From an uncultured Pseudomonadota bacterium (lineage in GTDB: Bacteria > Pseudomonadota > Alphaproteobacteria > RF32 > CAG-239): DNA of 64,000 bases. This document shows positions 2,292 through 56,358 of this stretch, in pieces (position 1 is the stretch's first letter; each line of letters starts with the position of its first letter). A program made the position numbers and the translations under genes. Under the pieces are notes generated by a model. It ran no database searches and was not told the DNA's origin. It worked only from the letters and a program-made list of their open reading frames with translations. The DNA lies in contig CACWQS010000002.1 in assembly GCA_902763155.1 (NCBI GenBank), forward strand, positions 137,566 through 201,565. The letters are read 5' to 3'.

Positions 2292-3467
2292 GTGACGCAT
2301 AATTTTGCCGATAACCTTAAATATACCTTCGGAACTATCAAAAGTTCCTTTATTCCGGCGTTTTTTATCGCCGTAGCATTGATTATGTTTTACGCTCAAA
2401 ATCCGTTTGAATTTCAACTCAGCCAAATTTTTCACGCTGTTTTCTTAGGAATATCGGCCTTTACTGCAGTTTTTTTATATATTACCAATCAAACCAAACC
2501 TTTTTTCAGCTTGTTACAAGGAATAATCGTTTATGCCCTTATCAACTGGTTCAAAAAGGAATACAGCACCGATTTTGCCTTGCAACCGTATTATATTCTG
2601 CTTTGCTTTGCCGTTCCCGTCAATATGATTATCTTTTATTTTTTACCGCCACAACAATTACGCTCGTTACGCGGATTTTGCGTTACTATCGCCTTGTTGA
2701 TAGAAATGGCCATTATTGAGCATTTTAATCGTTGGATATTGCTTATTCCGTATATTGATATAACATGGGAATCCATGCCGCTGTGGTGTGTTTTGCTTTG
2801 GCTTGTCTGCCTTACTATCTTAGCCATTAACATCAGTTTTAAAAATACTATTATCAATACCGGTCTTTTTTATGCCGATTCGGCACTGTTCTTGTGTCTT
2901 GCATACGCTCACCAAGCTTCGGCTCACAGCATCTTCGGCTTGGCCTTTACTGCCATTATTTTTTGCATTACCCTGCTGGATTTATTTTACCGCTATCATC
3001 ACGACAGTTTGGAAAAAGTCAGCAGCTATAATTCATATATCTCCCGCGCCGGCAATAAATTTTTATTCAAATACACCGTTGCGGTATTTTGCATTGATAA
3101 CCGCGAAAAACTGCTGTCTTCTATCGGTGAAGCAAATATACAGGTTTTAGAACAAATGCTGGTCAACAAAATCTGCGAATTTTCTCCGGAAGTAGAACTT
3201 TTCCGCTATAACGAAAACGAACTTATGATGGTGTTCAAAAACGAAGATGCCAAACATGCATTAGAATATTGCGAAAATATTCGCCGCACGATTGCCGCTT
3301 CGGAATTTATTTTTACTTCAGGAAAAACTCTTAAAATCACTATTTCAATCTGTGTTTCCGAACGCACCCGCAAATACATTGATGCAGATGTTGTAGCCGA
3401 ACGCGGTCATAACGGCCTACAAAAAGGTTATCATTTCAACAGTAATATTGCCACTATTGCTTCTTAA
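2292..3467 (+). CDS. polytopic membrane protein with a C-terminal degenerate GGDEF-like domain
   Basis: About 7 predicted TM helices. C-terminal ~160 aa (AVFCIDNREKL...ELFRYNENELMMVF...ITISICVSE) resembles a diguanylate-cyclase fold, with the GG[DE]EF motif replaced by YNENE. GTG start. Confidence 0.5.
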   Translation: MTHNFADNLKYTFGTIKSSFIPAFFIAVALIMFYAQNPFEFQLSQIFHAVFLGISAFTAVFLYITNQTKPFFSLLQGIIVYALINWFKKEYSTDFALQPYYILLCFAVPVNMIIFYFLPPQQLRSLRGFCVTIALLIEMAIIEHFNRWILLIPYIDITWESMPLWCVLLWLVCLTILAINISFKNTIINTGLFYADSALFLCLAYAHQASAHSIFGLAFTAIIFCITLLDLFYRYHHDSLEKVSSYNSYISRAGNKFLFKYTVAVFCIDNREKLLSSIGEANIQVLEQMLVNKICEFSPEVELFRYNENELMMVFKNEDAKHALEYCENIRRTIAASEFIFTSGKTLKITISICVSERTRKYIDADVVAERGHNGLQKGYHFNSNIATIAS

Positions 3468-11536: not shown

Positions 11537-11767
11537 ATGATAAATAATACAATAACATTTGATGAAAATACTATGCATGAAATCGGCAAAGGATTGTGGC
11601 TGGCACGCCAGGAAAAGCATTTGTTTATATATCAGGTAGCAAAACGCTCTCGTGTGCCGATAGATTTAATTGACACAATGGAATTGGGGAAAGCTATAGA
11701 AGACAATGCTCTGATTAAATTACTTAAATTTTACGGCAAAAAAATACGGATTGTAATTGAGGATTGA
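11537..11767 (+). CDS. small XRE-family HTH protein
   Basis: 76 aa. HTH segment LARQEKHLFIYQVAKRSRVPIDLIDTMELGK. RBS GAGGAG. Confidence 0.55.
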   Translation: MINNTITFDENTMHEIGKGLWLARQEKHLFIYQVAKRSRVPIDLIDTMELGKAIEDNALIKLLKFYGKKIRIVIED

Positions 11768-12041: not shown

Positions 12042-12533
12042 ATGAGTAATTTATATAAATTCAATCAAGACACGCAAATTGATGAATTTGGTGTCGACCA
12101 TTCCAATTTCTCGCTACGAGATGAAATTGAGTATAACACTATGCGGGCTAATCAATCTATGCCCAAACAGCAAAATCCGGTAAGACAAATTGTTGGCGCA
12201 GTTGCGGATATGACGCGAAATTATTTCGATATGAAACGTGATAACACTGTTGGTGCCGATGACTATTTTCATTGTAAAGCCAATTATGAAGCCGCAAATC
12301 ATGGACCATGGGGCGAATTAACAGCACAAATTGTTGGTGATACTAAAGAAGGATTTGACTATTTAAAAAATAGGTTTTACAAAGGATTTAGCTATCCGGA
12401 TGCTTTATCTGATTATTTGCACGACAAAGATGTTAATCTACAAGGGCGACAATTATCAAAGAATCCGTTGTACTCTAACTCAATAGAAGCTTGTCAATAT
12501 CAACGAGTAAAAGATATAAATGAGAAATATTAA
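12042..12533 (+). CDS. serum amyloid A (SAA)-like domain protein
   Basis: Core VADMTRNYFDMKRDNTVGADDYFHCKANYEAANHGPWGELTAQIVGDTKE aligns by eye to the vertebrate SAA core [54 protein letters not shown]. The C-terminus ends ...EKY, as vertebrate SAA does. No signal peptide. Start chosen at MSNLYK (RBS AAGGAAAA). Confidence 0.6.
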   Translation: MSNLYKFNQDTQIDEFGVDHSNFSLRDEIEYNTMRANQSMPKQQNPVRQIVGAVADMTRNYFDMKRDNTVGADDYFHCKANYEAANHGPWGELTAQIVGDTKEGFDYLKNRFYKGFSYPDALSDYLHDKDVNLQGRQLSKNPLYSNSIEACQYQRVKDINEKY

Positions 12534-12801
12534 AAACTTTATGATAACGCTATTCGTTTTTTACCTTAAGGTATGCACGTTTATCGGTTTTATGTTGGTA
12601 ACACTATGCCTTATCGGCGGTATTTATTTGTTTGTTACAGATTCTGATCTTCTGGCTGTAGATTCATGTTTAGATGCCGGAAAAGTCTGGGATTATGAAC
12701 AAAAAATCTGCCGCGATGACTGCTTGACGTGGAATGAAAAAATCGGTTGCGTGCCGATAACAAAAGAAAATATCGAAAAGAAAGCCAAAGGATTATTGTA
12801 A
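12520..12801 (+). CDS. small membrane protein with C-terminal DSCLDxG Cys-rich tail
   Basis: 93 aa, two TM helices, then DSCLDAGKVWDYEQKICRDDCLTWNEKIGC. Overlaps the SAA-like gene by 14 nt. Paralog of 51801..52211. Confidence 0.5.
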   Translation: MRNIKNFMITLFVFYLKVCTFIGFMLVTLCLIGGIYLFVTDSDLLAVDSCLDAGKVWDYEQKICRDDCLTWNEKIGCVPITKENIEKKAKGLL

Positions 12802-16260: not shown

Positions 16261-18495
16261 CTATCTGCTACCATAACCGCCGTTTTTGAAATTTCGCTCC
16301 AAGCGGCGTTGCTCTTTTTGTTCTCTTTTCTTTTCGTGGCGAGATTTTTTGCCTGATTTATCTTTTTTGCTCAGCTTTTCTTTACCGGCGTTTTTGCCTA
16401 TAGTGATAATCTTGCCGGCTTCGCGCTTACCGTAATTATGCTTTTTACCGAATTCTTTCTGACTTTCCTCAGCTTTGCGCTGATGGTTTGATTGCACCCG
16501 CGGGGTTTCTTCTTCCAACAGCAAGGCTTTTTCAAGCATATCGTCTTGCTTGGTCATCAGCCGTTCGCCGGTTTTGCTCAAAAGGGCTATAACCACATCG
16601 GCACGGTTGGTTTCCTGATACAGTCCGTTCATAGATTTCAGCACAATTTGTCCGCTGCCCGGAGTGCGTTCCAGCGCCAAAAAGCATTGGTCTTCAATGT
16701 TTATACGGCGGATAACGTTTGAATATCCCGGCTTTAGCTCAATTATATCACCGTTGGCAAAATTATGAAATTCAATGCGTTTGTTGTCTTGCAGGGCGCG
16801 GGCGCTGTTTTCGCGCTGGTCAAAGTTGCCGTGCAGGCCGATAACCTGCAGCTTTTTGCCTTTGCGCGCCATAAGTTTGAAGGCATTTTTGCAGTGTTTC
16901 ATCACATTGCTGATAGATTGTCTTAAGCCGCCGGCTTTGTTGTGGCCGCTCATCTGGCGTTTTTTAACAAAATGACACATCTTGAGCAGGTCGGCAACCT
17001 TGTGTTTTTCCAGCTCGGCTTTGCTCAGTTCGTTTAGGAAAATGGTAGCACCGCAACGTGCAGCTCCGCGATAGGTTTCCACCGTTTGCCAAAAGCGCAC
17101 ACCGCCGATAAGGCGTTGACAGCCGTCTATCACGCATTTGCGACCCAAAGGAAAATGCCCTTCGTCGCCGCGTATCATATGCACCAAACCGGAAACCTGG
17201 TCGCCAGACTCTTTTTCATAGCCTTCGCCAAATGCCCCGCTAACGAAAAGATTTTGCTTATTAAAGTCCACATCTTGGTTATATTTTTCGGCATCAGGTT
17301 TTATAATATTATTATAGCTCCACACCACATCTTTGAAATCTTCGGCGCGATACATTTTCACATTTTGCTCGCGCAAAGCATTCAAGTTCTTTTCCGAAGT
17401 TTTTTGCAAATGGCCGCGTTTATCAATATAGAATATTTCATTACATTCCTGCCAAGCACGAAAAGATTCGCGCATCTGCCAGCCGTCGATAAACACTTTT
17501 TTGCCTTGTTCGGCACAAACCACCAAAGATGGCAGCCAGTTTTCAATGCTGCGCGAAATGAGCGGGGTGATGATGCGCGCTTCTTTGTTGTAATTAAAAA
17601 TTTCTCTTACGGCATTACAACTGTCTTCAAAACTAAACTCTTCTTCGGCGTTTTCGTTGCCGTAATCATCAAATTCAGCAAGGACTTCTTCCATTCCGGT
17701 AGAAGTAGAATCAGCCCCGATATGGGTAATATCGTGCTTAGAAAGGAACTTTTGCGCTTCCGGATTATCGCCGGAAAGGCCGGTGAGAGAAGCTGATACC
17801 CGATTATCGCCGGGGTTCAAATATCCCACGCCAGACGGGCTGGAAAGAATGTATCCGTATGAGCCGACGGTGGGGTGCGAAACCGGCAGCGAGCCCACTT
17901 TCAGCTCTTTGATTTTTTCGTCTTTATACGGAGCCAAAATTTTGAACTGCGGAAAAGAGCCTTTCGGCAAATGATATTGCTTTAAGAGAGAATAGAATCT
18001 TTTTTGGGTATATTCGCTACCGAACAGCGGCGGCATTTGCAGCTTATGTTCGTGGGCATACAGGGTCATATAAATGAGCGAATCCAAATGGTCGGCATGG
18101 CAATGGGTAATAAAAATGGCGTCAAGCGGATATTTGGCTTTTTCTCCGTCCGGCGAGGGCAAAAACATTCTGAAATCGGGCATATAAGAATCATATTGGG
18201 AATTTTTTTCAATATATTCTTGGGCTTGTTCTTCGTTTTGCTCTTCGTTTTTGCCGGAAGAAAGTTTGACTCCGGCATCTATCATAATTCGACGTGTTTT
18301 ACCGTTTTCTTCATACTCAAACACTTGGCAATTTGCACCAATCCCGTCATTATTGCCGGCCGGAACCCCCCCCCACAAGCCATAATCTCGTTTGTTCGTT
18401 TTGCTGTGCCATGTCATTAACTCCGCTAATATATTTTTCACGTTTGCTTCATTATACACAAATATTGACAAAATGCAAACATTTTTATTCCGCAT
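16261..18495 (-). CDS. rnj: ribonuclease J-like metallo-beta-lactamase/beta-CASP nuclease with large insertions and a Lys-rich C-terminal tail
   Basis: MBL motifs (IDAGVK; ITHCHADHLDS; PVSHPTVGSYGY). DSTST and ISRSIENW segments resemble beta-CASP. HGNFDQRE and NGDIIEL resemble the RNase J C-terminal region. At 744 aa it is about 190 aa longer than typical RNase J. The C-terminal 60 aa are K/R/E-rich. Confidence 0.55.
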   Translation of the reverse strand: MRNKNVCILSIFVYNEANVKNILAELMTWHSKTNKRDYGLWGGVPAGNNDGIGANCQVFEYEENGKTRRIMIDAGVKLSSGKNEEQNEEQAQEYIEKNSQYDSYMPDFRMFLPSPDGEKAKYPLDAIFITHCHADHLDSLIYMTLYAHEHKLQMPPLFGSEYTQKRFYSLLKQYHLPKGSFPQFKILAPYKDEKIKELKVGSLPVSHPTVGSYGYILSSPSGVGYLNPGDNRVSASLTGLSGDNPEAQKFLSKHDITHIGADSTSTGMEEVLAEFDDYGNENAEEEFSFEDSCNAVREIFNYNKEARIITPLISRSIENWLPSLVVCAEQGKKVFIDGWQMRESFRAWQECNEIFYIDKRGHLQKTSEKNLNALREQNVKMYRAEDFKDVVWSYNNIIKPDAEKYNQDVDFNKQNLFVSGAFGEGYEKESGDQVSGLVHMIRGDEGHFPLGRKCVIDGCQRLIGGVRFWQTVETYRGAARCGATIFLNELSKAELEKHKVADLLKMCHFVKKRQMSGHNKAGGLRQSISNVMKHCKNAFKLMARKGKKLQVIGLHGNFDQRENSARALQDNKRIEFHNFANGDIIELKPGYSNVIRRINIEDQCFLALERTPGSGQIVLKSMNGLYQETNRADVVIALLSKTGERLMTKQDDMLEKALLLEEETPRVQSNHQRKAEESQKEFGKKHNYGKREAGKIITIGKNAGKEKLSKKDKSGKKSRHEKKREQKEQRRLERNFKNGGYGSR

Positions 18496-37426: not shown

Positions 37427-37727
37427 ATCTTCTTCCGCCTCGTCCATTTGCGCCACATATAAGTCAATTACCTGCTGCAGTTGGCTGTTTTGCTTATTTT
37501 CAGCGTCATCAACGGGAGGGAAAATATCGGTCTCGGTAAAAATACTTATAGTCCCCCAAATACACAAACTCCAAACACTTTGCCGCATACCTTCCTCCAC
37601 CGCCGAAAAAATATAGTAACCGATAAAAGTTTTTCAATCACAAAATGTAATGAATATTGACGTTTTATTAAATTGTCGCTATTATACTGCACATATTGAA
37701 TTATCAAATATAACAAGGATATTTAAG

Positions 37728-39104
37728 ATGCAGATGTTTGCTTTTTTTCTTGCGATGTTTTCTTCCCTGAGTTGGCTGATTTACGCCGTTATGTTTGTCC
37801 GCTCCAAACTCGAAGCCGATAGTTTGTGGGAACAAAGTCCCGAAATGATGTTGATGCTGATTGCGGTTGTAGCCTTACCGCTTTTAACAATATGGATGGT
37901 ATTCGGCTATGTTAACCAATATATCAACAACAAACAAATAAATCGCAAACAAACTGAGCTTTTAAGACAACTGCAAAAGAATCAAGACTATACCGACTTG
38001 GTGGTACGGGTAATGCTTGATGCCGAACACGAAATTAAAGACGGATTCGTCATCAATAAATTTGAAGTTCTGATTAACGATATGAACGAGGCTTTAAGCG
38101 AAATTATCCAACGCTGCAACCTTGCCTCAACTTCCCAACTGGAACAACTGTGGCAACGTGTGGGCAGAGGTGAACGCTGGACGCTTGGCAAAACCATTTT
38201 AGAAGCCAGTAAAAGCCGTAGCACTTTTGACGCTTGGGCACGCGAAAAAGTCAGCCGTGACAAAGTTTTCCGCGGCTCGCTATTGGAATTTTGCTCGCGC
38301 TACCAAAATTTATTGCAACTTTTGGAAAAACATGACCGTGACCGCGTCTTTTTGAATATGATAGAAATGGGGGTCTTGGGTAAGGTATATTCCATTATTG
38401 CTCCTCTTAGCTCGGGTATAGATTCCTTAACCGCTACTAAAAACACAACTGACGAACCGCCGGCAAACGATTATACTTCCGTCTTAAAATTGGCCACCAT
38501 GGCAGAACCGGCAGCCCAAAATACTATCATGAACATTGATAAAAATGACACCGATGAGCCGGAAGATAACGAAGAATATGAACCAAAACCATCTATTCTT
38601 TCCCGTTTCAAACTTTTTGGGCGCAAAGAAGAACCGCAAGCACCGTCTATGGCCGACCAAGATCCGTTTTTCCGTGCTCTGCATAACAGTTTTCAAACCG
38701 AAACAAATGCAAATGAACCGACATTCGGCGCTTCTTCATTAGCGTCAGAAGAACCGAGCTTAAAAACAGATTCACTTTCACCGACAAACGAAAGCATTGA
38801 TTTAACCTCTGTAAACAATGATTTTATGAAAGATTTTAACACCGATTTTTCGGCCGCAGATGAATATAACAAAACACTCAAAGAAACAACTCCGTTAACC
38901 GGATTAAGCGATTTTGCCGCTCGTCTGGCGGCGGTGCGCGGTGAAGCCATACAAACAGCACCTTCTGTTGAAACTCCTTTTTCGGATACTGTTAAACCGG
39001 AACCCGAACCTTCAGCACCGATAGAAAATAAAAATGATGACGACAACGAAGATTTAGTATATCCGTTTGGCGGGTGGGACAATGAAGTCGGTAACGATAA
39101 ATAG
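37728..39104 (+). CDS. membrane-anchored protein with a coiled-coil region and a long acidic disordered C-terminal region
   Basis: Two N-terminal TM helices, a helical region (residues about 100-260), then about 200 aa rich in D/E/S/T/P. Start set at MQMFAFF. Confidence 0.5.
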   Translation: MQMFAFFLAMFSSLSWLIYAVMFVRSKLEADSLWEQSPEMMLMLIAVVALPLLTIWMVFGYVNQYINNKQINRKQTELLRQLQKNQDYTDLVVRVMLDAEHEIKDGFVINKFEVLINDMNEALSEIIQRCNLASTSQLEQLWQRVGRGERWTLGKTILEASKSRSTFDAWAREKVSRDKVFRGSLLEFCSRYQNLLQLLEKHDRDRVFLNMIEMGVLGKVYSIIAPLSSGIDSLTATKNTTDEPPANDYTSVLKLATMAEPAAQNTIMNIDKNDTDEPEDNEEYEPKPSILSRFKLFGRKEEPQAPSMADQDPFFRALHNSFQTETNANEPTFGASSLASEEPSLKTDSLSPTNESIDLTSVNNDFMKDFNTDFSAADEYNKTLKETTPLTGLSDFAARLAAVRGEAIQTAPSVETPFSDTVKPEPEPSAPIENKNDDDNEDLVYPFGGWDNEVGNDK

Positions 39105-43489: not shown

Positions 43490-43576
43490 GCCAATCCGAA
43501 TATGCGAACTCCCAGTCCGCTTGGTGTTTTTATAATATATTAACTCTTGGTTGATATAACAAAATTGAGGTGTGTT

Positions 43577-45625
43577 ATGAAAAAATTACTCTTAATGCTT
43601 GGAATATTCTTTGCTTTGCTTAAAAATGCGCAGGCTATTGATGAAAAAGAAAAAGAGATGTTTGACCGGTTTATTAATTTTACCGGAACTTATGAAGAAG
43701 ATTTACATCGTTTTAAGCAAAAACCATTGGTTGATTTAACCAAAGAAGAGCAAAAATCTGTTGCCGATTTTTCAATAGAGCGCAAAATTAATCCGCAATA
43801 TATTGAGAAATATGAGCAAGATACCAAACAGCAATATTCTCCAGCCGCAAAATTAAATCCATGGTTGGCAAGTTATTATGACACCGCATATTTTATTGAA
43901 TATTTGGAAAAAATTCCGGCACGCACTTTGGCACAAAAATATCAATTGTTGATTTTGTGGCAGATTTATAAACCGGAAAAAGTCGGTTCTGAAGAGTATA
44001 AAAAAATTGCCGAGTCCGCTCATGCCAAAACAATGGAATATTTGGCTGATGATGATAATTGGCAGGCTTCGTGGCGCCGTGAGGAATATGAAGAAATTGT
44101 GCAAGATGATTTTCAAAAGTGTTATGCCGATAAAAATTGCTTGGTAAAAGCTATTCCATATTGGATGGACTTACGTATTCCGATGAAAGTGATTTTGCCG
44201 TGCGATTTTGCTAAAGAGCATAATTTGTTATATTATTATGACGGTGCTGCAGGCGGTTCCGGTACTCAGGCAATTATGGTTTCTACATGTATTGCCGATG
44301 AAAAGTATAATTTTACACCGGAGCTTGATGCTTACATAGATAATGTGATTTCCGAAACCATACCTTACAGTTCTGGCTCAATAGTTAATGTATTTTATGC
44401 CAATGCCGATGCCCATTATTGGGATATAAAATATCAGCCGAATTTTAAAATCGATAAAATTGCCAATTGGCAGGAGTTTCCTTATACCGAATGGGCGGTG
44501 CAATCATATTATAATTTCAAAAAATTCAATAGTGTTATCAATAAAGGTGTCGGTTATAAGAAGGCCGTTGATATGCTTAAAGACCATTATGTAAAAGTAT
44601 TTAAAGCCAAACCGGAACAGGCCTTAAACGCAGCTTTAGTAACACTGAATCCACCGTCTTCATACGATTTTAAACGCATTACGCCGGATAATTTGAACTA
44701 TCTTTTGCTAATCGGAGCCGATTGGGAAAAAATTAAAGAGCAATTACCTGAAAACAATGACATAGCAGAATTGTTGGAATTAAGTATTGCCCATCCGCAG
44801 AACTTAAAACAACTCGTAAAACTAACAAAAAATGTCGATAAACCAAACAGTTTCGGTAAAACTCCATTGCAAACCGCCGCACAATACGGCTATTTTGAAA
44901 GTATTAAAATTTTACTTGATGCCGGTGCGGATATCAATCACCAAACTGTTGACTCCAATTGTTTTTCGGATTTTGAAATTGAGTGTATTCATAACGGCAA
45001 ACGCACGGCTTTAATGTATGCCTTACAAGAAAATCAGTATGAAACAGCAAAATATTTACTAGAAAAAGGTGCCGATATAACTTTAACCGATTCACAAGAA
45101 ATGACGGCACTTGATTATTTGATGAAAAAAGCGCCGAAATTCAGTACACACCGAACCGGAACAATTTACGGAGGTGAAGCTAATTGGCGAGAGCCGGAAG
45201 ATAATGAGAAACTGCCGACCGAACAATATGATGAGTTGTATAAACGTTTATTTTTCCATCAACAACCGCAAATCGCCGATGTTTTGGCTGGAAAATGGGA
45301 ATCAGAAGAAAAAGAAGAAACGGCTGTTTTTGAAAAAAATAACGATACCGATAAGCCTTTGTTAATTATTAAAAATGAACGTGGCGTATGGGCTGAATGT
45401 GATGCACAAGAAGATTCCCGCAACGTTTTTAATTGTATTTTTGAGCCGGATAAAGGCGATAAAAATAAATTTGATGTTTATTTTGCAATTTCTCATTATT
45501 ATAAGGATAAAGTAATCATATATTACAGTCTGGAACCGAATGTGCTTGATCGCTGTGTACAAGATGACGCTTGCGAACCTGAAATTTTAGCAACGCTGGA
45601 ACGAGAGGTAGAACACGATAAATAA
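43577..45625 (+). CDS. secreted ankyrin-repeat protein
   Basis: Signal peptide MKKLLLMLGIFFALLKNAQA. Ankyrin repeats, e.g. GKTPLQTAAQYGYFESIKILLDAGADINHQ and RTALMYALQENQYETAKYLLEKGADITL. Confidence 0.75.
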   Translation: MKKLLLMLGIFFALLKNAQAIDEKEKEMFDRFINFTGTYEEDLHRFKQKPLVDLTKEEQKSVADFSIERKINPQYIEKYEQDTKQQYSPAAKLNPWLASYYDTAYFIEYLEKIPARTLAQKYQLLILWQIYKPEKVGSEEYKKIAESAHAKTMEYLADDDNWQASWRREEYEEIVQDDFQKCYADKNCLVKAIPYWMDLRIPMKVILPCDFAKEHNLLYYYDGAAGGSGTQAIMVSTCIADEKYNFTPELDAYIDNVISETIPYSSGSIVNVFYANADAHYWDIKYQPNFKIDKIANWQEFPYTEWAVQSYYNFKKFNSVINKGVGYKKAVDMLKDHYVKVFKAKPEQALNAALVTLNPPSSYDFKRITPDNLNYLLLIGADWEKIKEQLPENNDIAELLELSIAHPQNLKQLVKLTKNVDKPNSFGKTPLQTAAQYGYFESIKILLDAGADINHQTVDSNCFSDFEIECIHNGKRTALMYALQENQYETAKYLLEKGADITLTDSQEMTALDYLMKKAPKFSTHRTGTIYGGEANWREPEDNEKLPTEQYDELYKRLFFHQQPQIADVLAGKWESEEKEETAVFEKNNDTDKPLLIIKNERGVWAECDAQEDSRNVFNCIFEPDKGDKNKFDVYFAISHYYKDKVIIYYSLEPNVLDRCVQDDACEPEILATLEREVEHDK

Positions 45626-50744: not shown

Positions 50745-51434
50745 TTATATTTTAAGTCGGCGCCTGTGTTTTACAACCGCAAAAGCGTGGCTTTCTTTGA
50801 GTAGCTCAAACAAAACCTCGTCCGGCACAGTATCGTCAAGTGTAATTGTAAGCCAATTTTTCTTATTCATATGATACGCCGGATAAAAGCCGGCCTGCTT
50901 GTGCAATTCCGGTATTTTCGCCTCATTTAATTTAATATTCATTACCTCAACTTCACAGGAAAGCTTTTTATTTAACTTGCTTCGATCGATGCTCATAATC
51001 AGCGCATACCATTTGCCGTTATCCGGATTTTTGAAAACTCCGTAATTGCAGTTTTCCCACGGGAAAACCGGCGCGTCACCGTAAGCGTCAAAAATTGCCT
51101 GCGTTAAGCGGTTGGCCTGCGAATGCACAAAATAGTTAATCCGGCAACAATTTGCTTTGATTCTTTCCAAAATCTTTTGATATTCGGCACGCACTTCGCC
51201 GGCAAAACCCTCCATATCTTCAACGCGCAACGGCAAAAATTCATCATCGGTGGCTGTTTCAAGCACTTTTCCGGAAACATTACTTTGCGGGGTAATATTT
51301 ACCACTGCTTTAAAATCGCCATCCATAAACAGCTCGCTATACGTCCACTTGCCGTCAGACTTGATAAATCCGAACTTTTCAAGCCGACCAAAATCAATAA
51401 TCGTGCGTTTAAATATCTTATCTTCTATGGTCAT
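50745..51434 (-). CDS. MmcQ/YjbR-family protein with an N-terminal extension
   Basis: The C-terminal ~120 aa (PWENCNYGVFKNPDNGKWYALIMSID...KKNWLTITLDD) resemble MmcQ/YjbR. Confidence 0.55.
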   Translation of the reverse strand: MTIEDKIFKRTIIDFGRLEKFGFIKSDGKWTYSELFMDGDFKAVVNITPQSNVSGKVLETATDDEFLPLRVEDMEGFAGEVRAEYQKILERIKANCCRINYFVHSQANRLTQAIFDAYGDAPVFPWENCNYGVFKNPDNGKWYALIMSIDRSKLNKKLSCEVEVMNIKLNEAKIPELHKQAGFYPAYHMNKKNWLTITLDDTVPDEVLFELLKESHAFAVVKHRRRLKI

Positions 51435-51460: not shown

Positions 51461-51799
51461 ATGTTTCTGCGCAAAATTGCAAATCTATTCAAAAAATTTT
51501 TACATTTCGCTACCGATTATGCCGTTATTACGGAAGACAGAAAATCCCAAGCAAAAAAGCGCGGCAAAGCAAGAGACAACAAATACGCACCGTTTCGCAA
51601 ATATTTTAAAAATTTGCAACAACAAAAATTTATAGAATTTAAAAATGCAGGACTTGTATTAAAAGCAAGCGAATTCTTGTATTGGTTTTTAGAAAATAAA
51701 ACAGAAGAAATCGTAATACCATATAAAAAAAGTAATCAATATTATAAATTGATAGGGTTAGCTCAAGAAAATAACAGAGAGTTTAAAAAGTACCTATAG
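51461..51799 (+). CDS. basic hypothetical protein
   Basis: 112 aa, K/R-rich. Its stop abuts the start of the next gene. Weak RBS. Confidence 0.3.
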   Translation: MFLRKIANLFKKFLHFATDYAVITEDRKSQAKKRGKARDNKYAPFRKYFKNLQQQKFIEFKNAGLVLKASEFLYWFLENKTEEIVIPYKKSNQYYKLIGLAQENNREFKKYL

Positions 51800-51800
51800 A

Positions 51801-52211
51801 ATGCAAGAGGCACTTACCTCGCTTCGCAGTATATTTTATTTGACGTGTTTTGATGTATTTTTTGTTTATGCTTTTTTATTAAAGAAAATGAAAGAACAAC
51901 AGAAGATATCTTATTTATTTTCCAGCAAACATATAAAATTACTTGAAGTCGTTATCAGTAATTTGTTTTATTACTTATGTTGGGTTATAATAGGATTTTA
52001 TTTTATAAGTATGAGTATAAATATAATTTCTTTGTATTTTGACCCTTACGATATGGATAGTTGCTTGGATACGGGTATTTGTAGAGAAGGTATTACTTTT
52101 GACAATTGCGAAGACGGTCTACCATGTACCATAACCAAAGAAAGTTGTATAGAAAATAGCAATATATGGCTTGAGGATATCCGTAGTTGTGACATTAGGC
52201 ACAACATTTAA
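51801..52211 (+). CDS. small membrane protein with C-terminal DSCLDxG Cys-rich tail (paralog of 12520..12801)
   Basis: TM helices, then MDSCLDTGICREGITFDNCEDGLPCTITKESCIEN. Compare VDSCLDAGKVWDYEQKICRDDCLTWNEKIGC at 12.7 kb. Confidence 0.45.
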   Translation: MQEALTSLRSIFYLTCFDVFFVYAFLLKKMKEQQKISYLFSSKHIKLLEVVISNLFYYLCWVIIGFYFISMSINIISLYFDPYDMDSCLDTGICREGITFDNCEDGLPCTITKESCIENSNIWLEDIRSCDIRHNI

Positions 52212-52444
52212 AATATCAATATTTGGGAATTTTTACTTGCGTATTAGGTAATTATTCGGTAACTATCCGGTAAATATTCGGAAATAAAACGCAAAAAACT
52301 TGCGCTTAGGGCTTTGCTAAGCAAGGAATTGCCGAAGAAAACTACCCGCAGTATGGCACAAATTTTTGGGGTGGTTCGCCGGAAAATAACTACGGTTTCG
52401 GCACTTCAAACATAAGCGGCAATATTGAAAATGTTACAAACCAG

Positions 52445-53155
52445 TTGAATAATGATGGATTTGGTGGCGGAGTAAGCAACGGTTTCGGTAGCGGAGCGAG
52501 TAATAGCGGTTTTGGTAACGCACCAACCAACAGCTACGGAAATAATCTCAACAATAATCAAACCAATAACGGATATAATTATACAACTGATATTCAAAAA
52601 CAGCAGTGTATTGATTCGTCTGGAATGCAATGCACACCGCAAAATAACAATAATTCTGCCAATATGACATCTAGGTATCCGGATTATTCACAACCGGCAT
52701 CTTTGGAATTTGACGGGCAGAATTTGGTTTGGTTGCAAAATGGTCAACCGGTAAAGTATTATCCGGCAGTATCAGGAAGAGCAGATTATCAAAGTGCTCA
52801 ATACACAAATGAAAGGAAAAGGGGTCCTATTCCTGAAGGAGATTATTTGTTAGGTCAAGGGACCGGAGAAGATTATAACAATAAAGAAGAAATGTCTTGG
52901 TGGAGAAAATTTGTACCATGGAATGATAATCCTTGGTATGAAAATCCTGCGGCATGGGGGAAATCTCGTATTCCTATTCAACCGCTCCCTACCACGAATA
53001 CATTCGGCCGGCATAGTATGTATGTCCATGGTGGGAATGTTCCCGGTTCGGCAGGTTGCATAGATTTAACTTATGCTAATGATGATTTCTATAATGATTT
53101 TAAAAATTATAATGGAACTTTACCTCTCAAAGTCAAGTACAAAAAAGGTTGGTAA
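52445..53155 (+). CDS. L,D-transpeptidase-fold (YkuD/Tlde1-like) domain protein with a Gly/Asn-rich N-terminus. Likely a toxin cassette, and the 5' end may be truncated
   Basis: The C-terminal domain carries YYPAVSGRADY...GPIPEGDYLLG...GRHSMYVHGGNVPGSAGCIDL, a His/Cys catalytic pair in LD-transpeptidase-like spacing. The only in-frame start is TTG at 52445. The frame stays open and is still G/N-rich (NYPQYGTNFWGGSPENNYGFGTSNISGN) back to a stop at 52307, with no ATG. Confidence 0.5.
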   Translation: MNNDGFGGGVSNGFGSGASNSGFGNAPTNSYGNNLNNNQTNNGYNYTTDIQKQQCIDSSGMQCTPQNNNNSANMTSRYPDYSQPASLEFDGQNLVWLQNGQPVKYYPAVSGRADYQSAQYTNERKRGPIPEGDYLLGQGTGEDYNNKEEMSWWRKFVPWNDNPWYENPAAWGKSRIPIQPLPTTNTFGRHSMYVHGGNVPGSAGCIDLTYANDDFYNDFKNYNGTLPLKVKYKKGW

Positions 53156-53162
53156 TTTTAAG

Positions 53163-53193
53163 GAAGGCAGGGAAAAATTCCTTGCCTTTTTTA
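53163..53193 (+). terminator. terminator-like hairpin after the toxin-domain ORF
   Basis: AAGGCAGG-GAAAAATT-CCTTGCCTT followed by TTTTTT. Confidence 0.45.
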
Positions 53194-53244
53194 TTATTTA
53201 TTTTATATATTGAATCACAATACATTATTAGCAGAAGGTGTGAA

Positions 53245-53580
53245 ATGTTTACAAAATTTAAAAAATATATGAAGGTTATTGCATATATTATCTTTACTTT
53301 GGTTGAACTCTTTTATATTAGAATAATCTTTGCACTTTATAATGCTATTCAAATCACCAGAGATGGTGGCTTTGTTAAATCCATTGATGAGAATAATCCC
53401 GTTTGGTATTATCAGTCTGAAGATAATATGATTTTACATGATAAAGTATTAATTGGTGGCTTTTTGTTATTTTTGATATTACCATTTATTTTTATCCGTA
53501 AACCGCAATGGGCTATATTATTGCAAGTCTTTTGGCTGGTGTTGGCTATTATCGAAGGATACTATATAAAATCATTATGA
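53245..53580 (+). CDS. small 3-TM membrane protein (candidate immunity/accessory)
   Basis: MFTKFKKYMKVIAYIIFTLVELFYI.... RBS AGGTG. 111 aa. Confidence 0.45.
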   Translation: MFTKFKKYMKVIAYIIFTLVELFYIRIIFALYNAIQITRDGGFVKSIDENNPVWYYQSEDNMILHDKVLIGGFLLFLILPFIFIRKPQWAILLQVFWLVLAIIEGYYIKSL

Positions 53581-53606
53581 CAAAACAGCCTTTTAGGAGC
53601 AATCAA

Positions 53607-53933
53607 ATGAAAATCACCTTTCAAAAAATTAAGAATGTAGGTAAATACTTTATTTTTGGTCTTTTATACATCTTTGGAATACTCAACTTATATTTCTTTT
53701 GGTTAAGAGCATGGCGCGTAAAGGATGTTATGAATTATACTGATGCAAATTATAAAGGATATCTTGATATCATTGAAATGTACGTTGGTTATATAAGCGG
53801 ATGGTCTATTTTATTTATAATATCATTTGTGTATTCGCTTATTTATATTAAAAATAAATCCTTATATGCATTCATGTGGCTATTTTTACCCGTAATTTAT
53901 TTGTTAACTTTAGCATATCATGAATATTTATAG
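53607..53933 (+). CDS. small 3-TM membrane protein (candidate immunity/accessory)
   Basis: MKITFQKIKNVGKYFIFGLLYIFGI.... RBS AGGAG. 108 aa. Confidence 0.45.
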   Translation: MKITFQKIKNVGKYFIFGLLYIFGILNLYFFWLRAWRVKDVMNYTDANYKGYLDIIEMYVGYISGWSILFIISFVYSLIYIKNKSLYAFMWLFLPVIYLLTLAYHEYL

Positions 53934-53972
53934 GAAGATTTCTTGGCAGTAAATATCCGAAGGAGGATTGCG

Positions 53973-54185
53973 ATGAACTCATACGACGATATATTAAAAA
54001 GAATTGGTAAATATATAGGATATACTATACTCTTTATTCTTTCTTTGATTATAATAGGTGTAGTTGCAGGTATTACTTGGTACGCACTAACCGAACATAG
54101 CTATAAAGATTGTGATAATCAATTTATCAATGGTTGTATGTCAGCAGGGTTAAGTGAAGAAGTCTGTAAAGGCAGAGTTTATTAA
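53973..54185 (+). CDS. small 1-TM membrane protein with YKDC...C tail
   Basis: RBS GGAGG. TM helix, then HSYKDCDNQFINGCMSAGLSEEVCKG. Paralog of the next gene. Confidence 0.45.
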   Translation: MNSYDDILKRIGKYIGYTILFILSLIIIGVVAGITWYALTEHSYKDCDNQFINGCMSAGLSEEVCKGRVY

Positions 54186-54203
54186 GCTGTGAGGATTTAT
54201 TGG

Positions 54204-54431
54204 ATGACAGAAGAACACCAAATATGCGTAAAGCAAATATTAGATAAAGCAGTTAGCGGTATTTATAAAATTGCACTTTATTGTATCGTATTTGTTTTAA
54301 TCTGTGTTATAGCTTTCTTTTTCTTATATCCGCATTATCAGGAATATGCATACAAAAAAGATTGCTTGCAAAACGGGCACCAAAAAGAATGGTGCGAGAA
54401 GACGTGGCAGGAATTATTAGAGTTGGATTAA
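54204..54431 (+). CDS. small 1-TM membrane protein with YKKDC...C tail
   Basis: TM helix, then YAYKKDCLQNGHQKEWCEKTW. Paralogous to 53973..54185. Confidence 0.4.
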   Translation: MTEEHQICVKQILDKAVSGIYKIALYCIVFVLICVIAFFFLYPHYQEYAYKKDCLQNGHQKEWCEKTWQELLELD

Positions 54432-54837
54432 ATCTATCAAGCAGGCTTGTCAGAAATGGCAAGCCTTTAAAATACAACACATTAATTTAAAGGTATCCGG
54501 TTTCGCCTTTGGTATATGATTGCCATGTATATGGCACGTTTCGGAAGATTTTTGCCATTGCCGCGGAATTATATCGCAAATTCAAAGCATTATAAAGAGA
54601 GTTATTTTCCACTACCGTTTCAGGCGTTTTAGTACAAATCAAGCGGATTTACGGAATTTCAAAAGACAAAGACATCGTGGTTTTGATTATTAAGGGCGAC
54701 GAGATTGGCTTGATTTTTTGTTAAAAAATCTGCGCCGCTGCGTCGGCTTTATACGGCGATACTCCCGTCTCGCCAAGCCTCCTTGTCAAACACGCTCCCT
54801 TGCGTGTTCGCACCTTATTGCACGCAATCTACAAATG

Positions 54838-54874: not shown

Positions 54875-54951
54875 TGGTCGGGGCGACATGATTCGAACAC
54901 GCGACATCTTGGACCCAAACCAAGCGCTCTACCAGGCTGAGCTACGCCCCG
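54875..54951 (-). tRNA. tRNA-Pro (anticodon UGG), CCA encoded
   Basis: Reverse complement CGGGGCGTAGCTCAGCCTGGTAGAGCGCTTGGTTTGGGTCCAAGATGTCGCGTGTTCGAATCATGTCGCCCCGACCA. Acceptor CGGGGCG/CGCCCCG. Anticodon loop UUUGGGU. Confidence 0.85.
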
Positions 54952-55176: not shown

Positions 55177-56358
55177 TCAGAAGAACTTCTTTTCAGTTGT
55201 TCTCAAAAGATAGTCCTCAAATTTCTGAGATGTCCTGTCATACCCACCACCGAGGAAGTACTTATAGTCCTCGAGCATCATGCTGATACCGGAATCGTAG
55301 TCCTCCGGTGTGAACGATGCGCGGGCAAACAAGTCGCTGAGGATAATGTTCTCTACTGCGGTCTCGTGATCCACTCCATAGAGCAACTCCTGATAGTTGG
55401 GCCATCCCATATTGGAATAGTTCACAATAAGGTCGTAGAACATTTCCCAATCAGCCTCTGCCACGCCTGGCATAAGGTAACGCTCGGGGCGCTCGCTTGT
55501 GGTCTTGCCATCAAACGTGATGGTGTCCTTATACAAAGGACCAAGACTGGCGGCGATATAACCCATGGCAATCTCCGAACCTACCTGAGCCTCGGGAATT
55601 ACGTAACGATTATACGAATACCACATTGGGCAATGAGCCAAAACCAGATTGATGCGCACCTCGGAGAACTTTTCCTGGCGCAGTTGCCACATCCACTCGG
55701 CAAGCAAACGCTTGTCGTAATATGGATTGCCGCTAACCATAACGAAGGTTACCTCGTCAAGGCTACGCATTTTAGCGAACTCATAGAGTTCAACAAGATT
55801 TCCCTCGGTGTCATCATCATCACACAAGGTATAATTCTCATACACCCAATTACGATCACCCAACTCGTCCATAATTGCATAATAAGAGTCATACTCCGTT
55901 TTGCGAATCAGACCTTCCATGCGGTAGAATAGGTCGACAAATAATCCTTTGTTTCCCTCCTTACCGGAAGAAATAAAAGGAAGCAACTGACCGGTCTTCT
56001 TGGCGTAGAAACGCAGAGCCTCGAAAGCATACAGCGGGGCGTGCATAACACCTGAGAAGCAGTAGAGGAATGGGTTCACCATACCCTCCGGCAAGTCGTA
56101 GAGATCAACCACGCGAGCGATTGATATACCGCCCTGTGCATTGGGATATGTAAACTCTTCACCGGGCTTCAAACCACCCAATTCTTCGGCGGCATTAAAG
56201 AGAGCTGCTGACCACTCAATGCGGCGCGGCTTAAGTACATTAACGCGTTCAGCCATGAAGGCACGACCGGCAGCGTTACAACGAGATTTGTTCTCACCAT
56301 GTAGGAGTTCTTTGAACTCCGCCTCAGAAACATTGAGGCAGTCATAATACTTTTTCAT
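55177..56358 (-). CDS. hypothetical protein with atypical (GC-rich) codon usage. Has an acidic DDDD segment, possibly a DxD-type transferase
   Basis: 393 aa. GC-ending codons are enriched, and local GC is about 10 points above the neighbours by eye. YTLCDDDDTEGNL segment. No family recognised. Confidence 0.5.
   Translation of the reverse strand: MKKYYDCLNVSEAEFKELLHGENKSRCNAAGRAFMAERVNVLKPRRIEWSAALFNAAEELGGLKPGEEFTYPNAQGGISIARVVDLYDLPEGMVNPFLYCFSGVMHAPLYAFEALRFYAKKTGQLLPFISSGKEGNKGLFVDLFYRMEGLIRKTEYDSYYAIMDELGDRNWVYENYTLCDDDDTEGNLVELYEFAKMRSLDEVTFVMVSGNPYYDKRLLAEWMWQLRQEKFSEVRINLVLAHCPMWYSYNRYVIPEAQVGSEIAMGYIAASLGPLYKDTITFDGKTTSERPERYLMPGVAEADWEMFYDLIVNYSNMGWPNYQELLYGVDHETAVENIILSDLFARASFTPEDYDSGISMMLEDYKYFLGGGYDRTSQKFEDYLLRTTEKKFF

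Follow-up and report, generated by a model that had tools for sequence, protein, structure and literature searches.

What becomes of a toxin gene that has lost its start, in a chromosome that keeps it beside a row of small membrane-protein genes? The question is raised by a cluster of open reading frames (ORFs) lying between a YjbR-family gene and tRNA-Pro in an uncultured alphaproteobacterium (GTDB lineage RF32; CAG-239; contig CACWQS010000002.1), within a stretch of 64,000 nucleotides (nt) to which we refer throughout as the window. The cluster is in all probability a decayed polymorphic-toxin locus, consisting of an orphan toxin cassette and an immunity array between these two borders. A first-pass annotation had taken it for a C-terminal toxin module, orphaned or truncated, of L,D-transpeptidase (LDT) or Tlde1 fold, followed by immunity-type genes, in a variable stretch next to tRNA-Pro. 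Every test that we ran agrees with this core reading and with the ORF positions on which it was built (Table 1, with 52445-53155 for the toxin ORF), though several details need correction. For comparison we used 82 related loci, labelled L with a number, and related proteins, labelled P with a number.

The start-less toxin frame and its intact homolog

The toxin frame stays open from 52310 to 53155 (281 amino acids, aa), directly after a TAG at 52307-52309, and holds no ATG or GTG ahead of the TTG (52445-52447) that had been named as its only start. An ORF begun there encodes 236 aa; the TTG lies 7 nt 5′ of a Gly/Asn-rich linker, within the last codons of the remnant of an N-terminal domain. 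When the sequence was read directly, no Shine-Dalgarno sequence was seen before this TTG or before the ATGs at 51801 and 51461 that open the two ORFs upstream. The missing part of the gene is seen in an intact homolog, P0001, a protein of 332 aa that matches the 281 window residues throughout at 99% identity and carries 51 extra residues at its N-terminus (MDIWDEIKKL...). Its contig, L001, is 93% identical to window positions 52308-54707 and provides a normal AGGAG-ATG start; the homology begins exactly at 52308, where the window reads TAG and L001 reads GAG. The 45 codons upstream of the TTG, which the first-pass annotation had described as open, start-less and Gly/Asn-rich, are indeed open and start-less, but they encode the second half of the conserved N-terminal domain rather than mere linker. 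No trace of P0001 residues 1-48 was found near the window frame, where tblastn finds residues 49-99 alone. A frameshift or a hidden upstream exon was accordingly rejected: the missing residues do not appear in the tblastn search, and the 96 nt upstream (52212-52307) match nothing in the 82 loci. The gene therefore carries a true 5′ truncation, as had been proposed. With its first 51 codons gone, and with them the ATG and the ribosome-binding site, the gene in the window is probably silent, and the toxin is most likely not made or not exported.

A working stand-alone toxin or enzyme, made in this cell from the TTG, is very unlikely in our view. The ORF is intact to its stop with the active-site residues kept, and its differences from L001 are mostly synonymous (proportion of synonymous differences, pS, 0.105 vs 0.009 for nonsynonymous ones, pN), but that bias may predate the truncation. 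The TTG also lacks the Shine-Dalgarno sequence that the intact gene and the four small genes downstream possess, there is no signal peptide, and half of the N-terminal domain present in every intact member is gone. Moreover, a periplasm-acting enzyme confined to the cytoplasm would find no substrate.

Judged by sequence and structural model, the C-terminal domain is a Tlde1-like enzyme of LDT fold with a near-complete active site and a predicted activity. Pfam YkuD matches the 281-aa frame with 31.7 bits against a gathering score of 23.4 (E 2.7e-7), and Tlde1_dom falls slightly below its gathering score (27.2 vs 30.1 bits). When a profile of 95 relatives was compared with the PDB, Tlde1a was the only match (E 2.9e-9, residues 5-165 of 174). 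In an AlphaFold2 (AF2) model of the intact homolog, the predicted local distance difference test score (pLDDT) exceeds 90 in the C-terminal 150 residues, falls below 50 in the Gly/Asn-rich residues 100-170 and is 55-74 in the helical N-terminal part. Foldseek with the modelled C-terminal domain returned Tlde1a first (PDB IDs: 7uo3, 7uma, 7uo8; E ~1e-7), then Bd1075, YkuD and mycobacterial L,D-transpeptidases. The predicted catalytic residues are encoded at 53027-53029 (His) and 53057-53059 (Cys), in the motif YVHGGNVPGSAGCID. Their equivalents in P0001, C301 and the upstream H291, are nearly invariant in the family and are spaced as H121 and C131 of Tlde1a (H-x9-C). Counterparts of the named Tlde1a cleft residues, W93, R99, R115, Y119, H121 and C131 (PMC9638812), are conserved in the family. 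Thus the fold first proposed from motif spacing is upheld, with the Cys and His placed in an LDT/Tlde1-like fold, and the homologs are not ordinary periplasmic LD-transpeptidases but polymorphic toxins with linked small genes.

Among the closest known systems is the Tlde1a/Tldi1a pair of the Salmonella Typhimurium type VI secretion system (T6SS) (PDB IDs: 7UMA, 7UO3, 7UO8; PMC9638812), which shares the LDT-type beta-barrel, the spacing and cleft residues named above and, by expectation, a target in periplasmic peptidoglycan. An intact toxin, once delivered, would cleave or exchange the bond between meso-diaminopimelic acid and D-Ala of stem peptides in the periplasm, as shown for Tlde1a. Identity between the two is 22-24%, and where the Tlde1 catalytic motif reads HXX14-17-(S/T)HGCh (PMC9638812) the window has SAGC. 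Tlde1a also stands alone, whereas the domain considered here is fused behind an N-terminal domain and linker, outside any T6SS cluster seen. The partner differs as well: the candidate immunity protein in the window is a membrane protein with three transmembrane (TM) segments and no detectable relation to known families. No Tldi1-type partner was recognised, the 111-aa product of s111 matching nothing in Pfam, NCBIfam or PHROGs, libraries that may hold no Tldi1 model.

A polymorphic family and its candidate immunity genes

The sequence comparisons place the window toxin in a polymorphic toxin family of uncultured rumen and gut Alphaproteobacteria. At 85-96% identity, the first ~100 residues of P0001 are found again in proteins with mutually unrelated C-termini. 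A profile of this N-domain found only 262 representative clusters among 1.84 billion proteins, and in the 150 best matches listed, proteins of 60-600 aa, the domain begins at the N-terminus or within ~50 residues of it. It has no signal peptide and no match in Pfam or PHROGs. RHS, PAAR or VgrG domains, which the first-pass annotation had suggested looking for at the N-termini of homologs, occur in none of them, and this new domain of ~100 aa stands in their place. A phage origin was considered and rejected, the N-domain family being absent from IMG/VR and no component of the locus matching PHROGs. The hosts, from a scan of one genome per species, are uncultured rumen and human-gut metagenome-assembled genomes (MAGs) labelled Alphaproteobacteria, 'uncultured Azospirillum' or Rhodospirillaceae, with several copies per genome.

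In the related loci the C-termini form at least 17 clusters, every cluster having a particular type of gene downstream. Among 76 representatives of at least 200 aa, Pfam recognised GH108 in 11, PG_binding_3 in 6, T6SS_VgrG3-like_C in 4, SAA (serum amyloid A) in 4 and SLT in 2, with one each of Pesticin, Tlde1/YkuD, GH46, phage lysozyme and PG_binding_1. All of these but the SAA-like domain act on or bind peptidoglycan, so that the identifiable arsenal is mostly aimed at the cell wall. The SAA domain is itself an exchangeable C-terminus and comes in several subtypes, every one of them paired with a small immunity-type membrane-protein gene of its own, for instance at window 12042-12533, L008 10001-10831 and L001 4021-4743. 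The last of these belongs to a third N-terminal type (…RRTNPKxGxSEYYY…; also P0015 and P0017), which is joined to SAA-like or Tlde1-like C-termini and in L001 is preceded, like some other members, by an accessory gene that we call acc. Since C-termini are shared across the N-types, they have been shuffled among at least three N-terminal forms.

An intact member consists of the N-domain, presumed to serve in trafficking, a disordered Gly/Asn-rich linker and an exchangeable C-terminal toxin, with an immunity gene directly downstream that covaries with the C-terminus. Most immunity-type genes in the family encode membrane or signal-peptide proteins. We had taken the toxins to act solely in the periplasm, and this was softened by a 212-aa protein without TM segment or signal peptide (cluster c25; L002 11420-12058, minus strand, and relatives). 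It is encoded directly after, and on the opposite strand to, one unassigned toxin C-terminal class (P0120/P0101 type), and hints that not all family toxins act in the periplasm. Nothing specific was found in the literature on the toxin family, on bacterial SAA-like toxins or on secretion systems of the RF32 lineage. The N-domain, the acc partner, the immunity families, the SAA-like toxin domain and the restriction to this lineage appear to be undescribed in the libraries and literature searched.

The four small genes downstream of the window toxin can be assigned by the same covariation. We clustered toxin C-termini and tabulated the next gene for each cluster, which measures association only. 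Relatives of s111 (38-72% identity) directly follow the Tlde1-like subtype in L001, L004, L011, L084 (twice), L086 and L088, seven independent places in which the pairing holds behind long, short (~45-aa) and orphan N-terminal forms. The product of s111 is therefore likely to be the cognate immunity protein of this subtype. The product of s108 has the same size and topology and is 22-27% identical to it, and its gene family directly follows a toxin of a second Tlde1-like subtype (B) in L007. Relatives of s75 directly follow SAA-like C-termini ending in '...RRTPNMRKLGIR' in L015, L038, L056, L077 and L081, and s70 has its counterpart after the '...RYIKKNW' SAA-like type in L016, the one clear case. 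This type-for-type match makes the row one likely cognate and three likely orphan immunity genes, the latter belonging to other toxin types. The first-pass annotation had placed all four in the position of immunity genes; their membrane, immunity-type character stands, and only s111 is a likely partner of the adjoining toxin. It had also called two of them clear paralogs, a claim that we downgrade: the products of s70 and s75 bear only a weak likeness to each other (25% identity, pairwise E 0.007) and belong to different families. It could match the small proteins to no family, and we likewise found no known family that the immunity families match.

All four small genes have AGGAG-like Shine-Dalgarno sequences 6-9 nt ahead of their ATGs. 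Between the toxin stop and s111 a consensus scan, in which sites were no more numerous than in shuffled sequences, marked a strong terminator-like hairpin and a promoter-like site. The hairpin is kept in L001 and partly in L004 and L011, and could uncouple expression of the immunity genes from that of the toxin.

Probable decay and exchange between the YjbR-family gene and tRNA-Pro

The cluster has a GC content of 0.29-0.35, against ~0.40-0.45 in its flanks, and lies where the first-pass annotation had put it, in an accessory stretch abutting the 3′ end of tRNA-Pro: the tRNA gene is on the minus strand and so its 3′ end faces the cluster (Table 1). Otherwise the window consists of ordinary chromosomal genes (QueA, LysS, SecA, MlaE, RNase G, DnaJ, Rho). 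Comparison with other genomes shows the site to be variable. In a yak-rumen MAG (L008) the same site holds, in order, the YjbR-family gene, acc, a 276-aa toxin made of the N-domain and an SAA-like C-terminus, an immunity gene of DSCLD type, further genes and tRNA-Pro.

Table 1. Features of the toxin cluster, its borders and the second toxin locus, in window positions.
Feature	Position	Strand	Description
YjbR-family gene	50745-51434		left border of the variable site (Pfam, L008 synteny)
acc remnant	51461-51799	+	112 aa; lacks first ~53 residues; no Shine-Dalgarno
truncated immunity-type gene	51801-52211	+	136 aa; starts one base after the preceding stop
unique junction	52212-52307		ends in the TAG stop ahead of the toxin frame; no match in 82 related loci
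N-domain remnant	52310-52453	+	3′ half (residues 52-99) of the toxin family's conserved N-terminal domain
linker	52454-52681	+	Gly/Asn/Ser-rich, predicted disordered
toxin domain	52682-53155	+	Tlde1-like, predicted LDT fold, with stop codon
terminator-like hairpin	53159-53193	+	16 pairs and T-run, GC-containing; directly after toxin stop, before s111
promoter-like site	53182-53211		after the hairpin
s111	53245-53580	+	3 TM, 111 aa; likely cognate immunity protein; Shine-Dalgarno GAAGGTG
s108	53607-53933	+	3 TM; likely orphan immunity, second Tlde1-like subtype (B); Shine-Dalgarno AGGAG
s70	53973-54185	+	single TM, Cys-containing tail; likely orphan immunity, SAA-like '...RYIKKNW' subtype; AGGAGG
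s75	54204-54431	+	single TM, Cys-containing tail; likely orphan immunity, SAA-like '...RRTPNMRKLGIR' subtype; GAGGA
non-coding tail	54432-54707		conserved end of the cassette array; 89-93% identity in L001, L007, L038
tRNA-Pro(TGG)	54875-54951	-	constant right-hand border of the variable site
short-N-form toxin	12042-12533	+	163 aa; ~45-aa N-form; SAA-like C-terminus (Pfam SAA, E 1.9e-17)
TM immunity-type gene	12520-12801	+	93 aa; DSCLDAG tail; overlaps the toxin gene

The two ORFs upstream of the toxin frame, described at first as a basic protein and a Cys-tailed TM protein encoded end to start, are correctly placed and turn out to be truncated remnants of longer families. The first belongs to the acc family, whose members are 150-156 aa long and are predicted by AF2 to be all-helical, with a 73-residue helix (pLDDT 90.6). 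An acc gene precedes the toxin gene, at a distance of 95-119 bp, in 17 of 82 full-length cases and in 1 of 34 truncated ones. The attempt to read acc as a known adaptor or regulator led nowhere, its model having no PDB fold match and its sequence no Pfam match. The second ORF is the C-terminal half, with the last TM segments and the Cys-rich DSCLDxG tail, of a multi-TM protein of 257-260 aa, whose gene stands after an SAA-like toxin C-terminus in L080, where that C-terminus is an orphan ORF, and in L050, where it is disrupted; the window ORF is weakly related to the product of 12520-12801. Set beside the intact order of L008, these remnants indicate that the window lineage has lost, by deletion, its main toxin together with the 5′ half of that toxin's immunity gene. 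With both upstream genes truncated as well, the locus holds no intact toxin.

An integrative island targeted to the tRNA was also considered and rejected: neither an integrase nor a repeated tRNA-Pro 3′ end was found, and the site holds different content in L008. The absence of both an integrase and a tRNA-derived repeat points to a recombination hot spot rather than an integrated element. Directly beyond tRNA-Pro, a 393-aa ORF on the minus strand (55177-56358) gives a sub-threshold match to Pfam DUF1571 (E 0.034) and none to NCBIfam at E up to 0.1.

The window copy (52310-53155), with residues 52-99 of the N-domain, the linker and the Tlde1-like domain, is best read as an orphan cassette, and such copies are common in the family. 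We counted 130 places with the N-domain in the 82 loci and the window, 91 of them full and 39 (~30%) 5′-truncated. The truncated copies begin mostly at about residues 45-50 or 60-70, and most lie 1-5 kb 3′ of a full copy on the same strand. Orphan modules of Cdi, Rhs and Maf systems keep a homology tract that permits recombination with a full gene (PMC4436062). In the window the tract 52310-52453 has a DNA identity of 75-93% to nearly all related loci, which makes it a likely homology tract of this kind.

Comparison with L001 suggests that the toxin-immunity unit was recently exchanged as a block. The segment 52607-53606, which holds s111 and the adjoining C-terminal domain of the toxin, is 100% identical to L001 890-1889; outside it the flanks are 50-93% identical to L001, and neighbouring 100-nt blocks differ by 4-50%. 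Downstream in L001 the genes of 111, 108 and 75 aa are nearly identical to those of the window, and a divergent 66-aa allele replaces the 70-aa gene. The non-coding tail of the array may be a boundary or recombination sequence. Its counterparts are found at L001 2702-2969, L007 2621-2888 and L038 1690-1871, and pieces of it stand beside other cassettes at L004 10008-10109 and 11579-11666 and at L080 12980-13040.

At present, then, the locus would serve as an immunity array with a silent toxin in reserve. The products of s111, s108, s70 and s75 would shield the envelope from the toxins of relatives, and the reserve might be revived if its N-domain tract underwent homologous recombination with a full-length paralog. 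Several observations weigh against this picture of a decayed locus with a silent reserve. In the classical arrangement a full-length toxin gene lies upstream of the orphan, and here there is none, so that the recombination partner would lie elsewhere in the genome; the sole intact member seen in the window has the short N-form, without the retained tract. A product made from the TTG at 52445 or from internal ATGs is conceivable. The counterpart of H129 in the (S/T)HGC motif is Ala in the window and Ala, Ser, Lys or Gly in the family, never His, and the activity of the domain is accordingly predicted rather than certain. The immunity roles rest on position and covariation, in the case of s70 at one clear locus. 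Finally, the window and most of its relatives are metagenome assemblies, in which repeats can cause misjoins.

That intact member, a second and complete copy of the toxin system, occupies 12042-12801. A small XRE-like ORF (11537-11767) precedes it.

It is scarcely credible that an assembly error in the metagenome produced the truncation, or that the gene simply encodes a housekeeping L,D-transpeptidase. As a multi-copy repeat, the N-domain tract might mislead an assembler, but the break falls at the edge of the repeat, not within it, and is joined to 96 nt of unique sequence, 38 other truncated copies occur in independent assemblies and the identical 112-aa acc variant is found in another sample (P0121), while a housekeeping enzyme fails on the lack of a signal peptide, on Tlde1a as closest structure and on the polymorphic context.

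Delivery and known systems

Judged from the sequence, the architecture is of a known kind, a polymorphic toxin locus that carries an orphan module. Polymorphic toxins and orphan cassettes shape the coexistence of strains in dense communities, and a little-studied, uncultured lineage of Alphaproteobacteria from rumen and human gut seems to run its own version of such a system. Its N-terminal domain, membrane immunity proteins and bacterial SAA-like toxin domain are new elements, none of which seems to have been described, and two candidate toxin-immunity pairs are offered by the Tlde1-like domain with s111 and the subtype-B domain with s108. The window locus, a decayed copy, matters as a way into the family rather than as a functional weapon.

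The family poses the question of how a protein without a signal peptide or a known trafficking domain reaches the periplasm of another cell. We put forward tentatively, at less than even confidence, that the N-domain marks an undescribed toxin-delivery route, with mostly peptidoglycan-directed cargo, in this gut and rumen lineage. The domain could be a new kind of signal by which an export machine encoded elsewhere knows its substrates, or else a compact module for self-import. With it go a facultative helical partner of 150 aa and several membrane-immunity families that are new.

One route, possible though doubtful, is that the toxins are cargo of a contact-dependent injection machine (a T6SS or similar) encoded elsewhere, for which the N-domain would be the loading signal and acc an adaptor or chaperone. 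Tlde1 is a T6SS effector family (PMC9638812), other C-termini match T6SS_VgrG3-like_C, GH108 and SLT, and the order acc-toxin-immunity resembles that of adaptor, effector and immunity genes. Orphan modules, too, characterise contact-dependent systems and do not occur in colicin loci (PMC4436062). However, the N-domain is unlike any known T6SS marker domain in Pfam, and acc stands ahead of only the 17 full-length genes given above. In agreement with the first-pass annotation, which had seen no secretion-system gene in the window, none, including Hcp, VgrG, PAAR and Tss, was present among the 20 of its longest ORFs that were scanned, and no family of T6SS or other secretion genes is enriched in the ~1.1 Mb around the 82 related loci. 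A gene for an outer-membrane transporter of ShlB/TpsB type was observed in L003/L004 (1740-3503), ~0.5 kb 5′ of acc and 1 kb 5′ of the toxin gene; none was seen beside other loci, and this one comes from one rumen MAG alone.

A second route, which we judge rather unlikely, is that of diffusible bacteriocins resembling colicin M or pesticin, with the N-domain and linker as a receptor-binding and translocation module. The disordered Gly/Asn-rich region after the N-domain resembles colicin translocation domains, and the peptidoglycan-directed C-termini, SAA-like ones excepted, include Pesticin. The mostly membrane or signal-peptide nature of the immunity-type proteins, the lack of linked secretion genes and the narrow taxonomic range would also fit diffusible toxins. 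Against this, the loci showed no gene for lysis or release, colicin loci are without orphan modules, and the short N-form of ~45 aa is too small for separate receptor and translocation domains. The c25 protein, a candidate immunity protein on the opposite strand after its one C-terminal class, is likely cytoplasmic. The TolB-box core of ColE9 and ColA, DG(S/T)GWSSE (PMC2821528), is absent from the N-domain; FWGGSPENNYGFG is loosely similar, and its reading as a TolB box was dropped on that account.

The resemblance to colicin M and pesticin otherwise lies in the modular build without a signal peptide, the disordered N-terminal region, the periplasm-acting cell-wall enzyme at the C-terminus and the envelope-located immunity. 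The window family differs in having no TonB- or TolB-box core, no visible receptor-binding domain and no lysis gene, and orphan arrays are not a colicin feature.

Immunity-type genes grouped without their toxins are found in the acquired interbacterial defence islands of Bacteroidales. The orphan immunity genes of Rhs and T6SS loci (e.g. PMC10539506) are similarly clustered without toxins and have ribosome-binding sites of their own. The window array differs in that it has no recombinase or mobile-element gene and lies inside a toxin locus at a fixed site, and the protection it would give is putative.

Another close parallel is provided by the orphan modules of Cdi, Rhs and Neisseria MafB systems (PMC4436062; PMC3482391), which likewise have a conserved N-terminal part with exchangeable C-terminal toxins, an immunity gene next downstream, 5′-truncated cassettes that retain a stretch of homology and islands at conserved chromosomal sites; in Maf loci an accessory gene can also sit upstream. 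The N-terminal part of the window family is only ~100 (or ~45) aa long, without signal peptide, repeats, RHS/YD, PAAR, VENN or DUF1020, and no CdiB/TpsB, T6SS or MafA-type gene is consistently linked to it. The window locus differs further in having lost the full-length gene, which most related orphans and the syntenic L008 retain.

Elsewhere in the window, the ORFs at 2292-3467 (391 aa), 16261-18495 (744 aa) and 37650-39104 (484 aa) have no confident Pfam match at E up to 1e-5, and a 692-aa ORF at 43547-45625 contains ankyrin repeats (Pfam Ank_2, E 2.7e-22).

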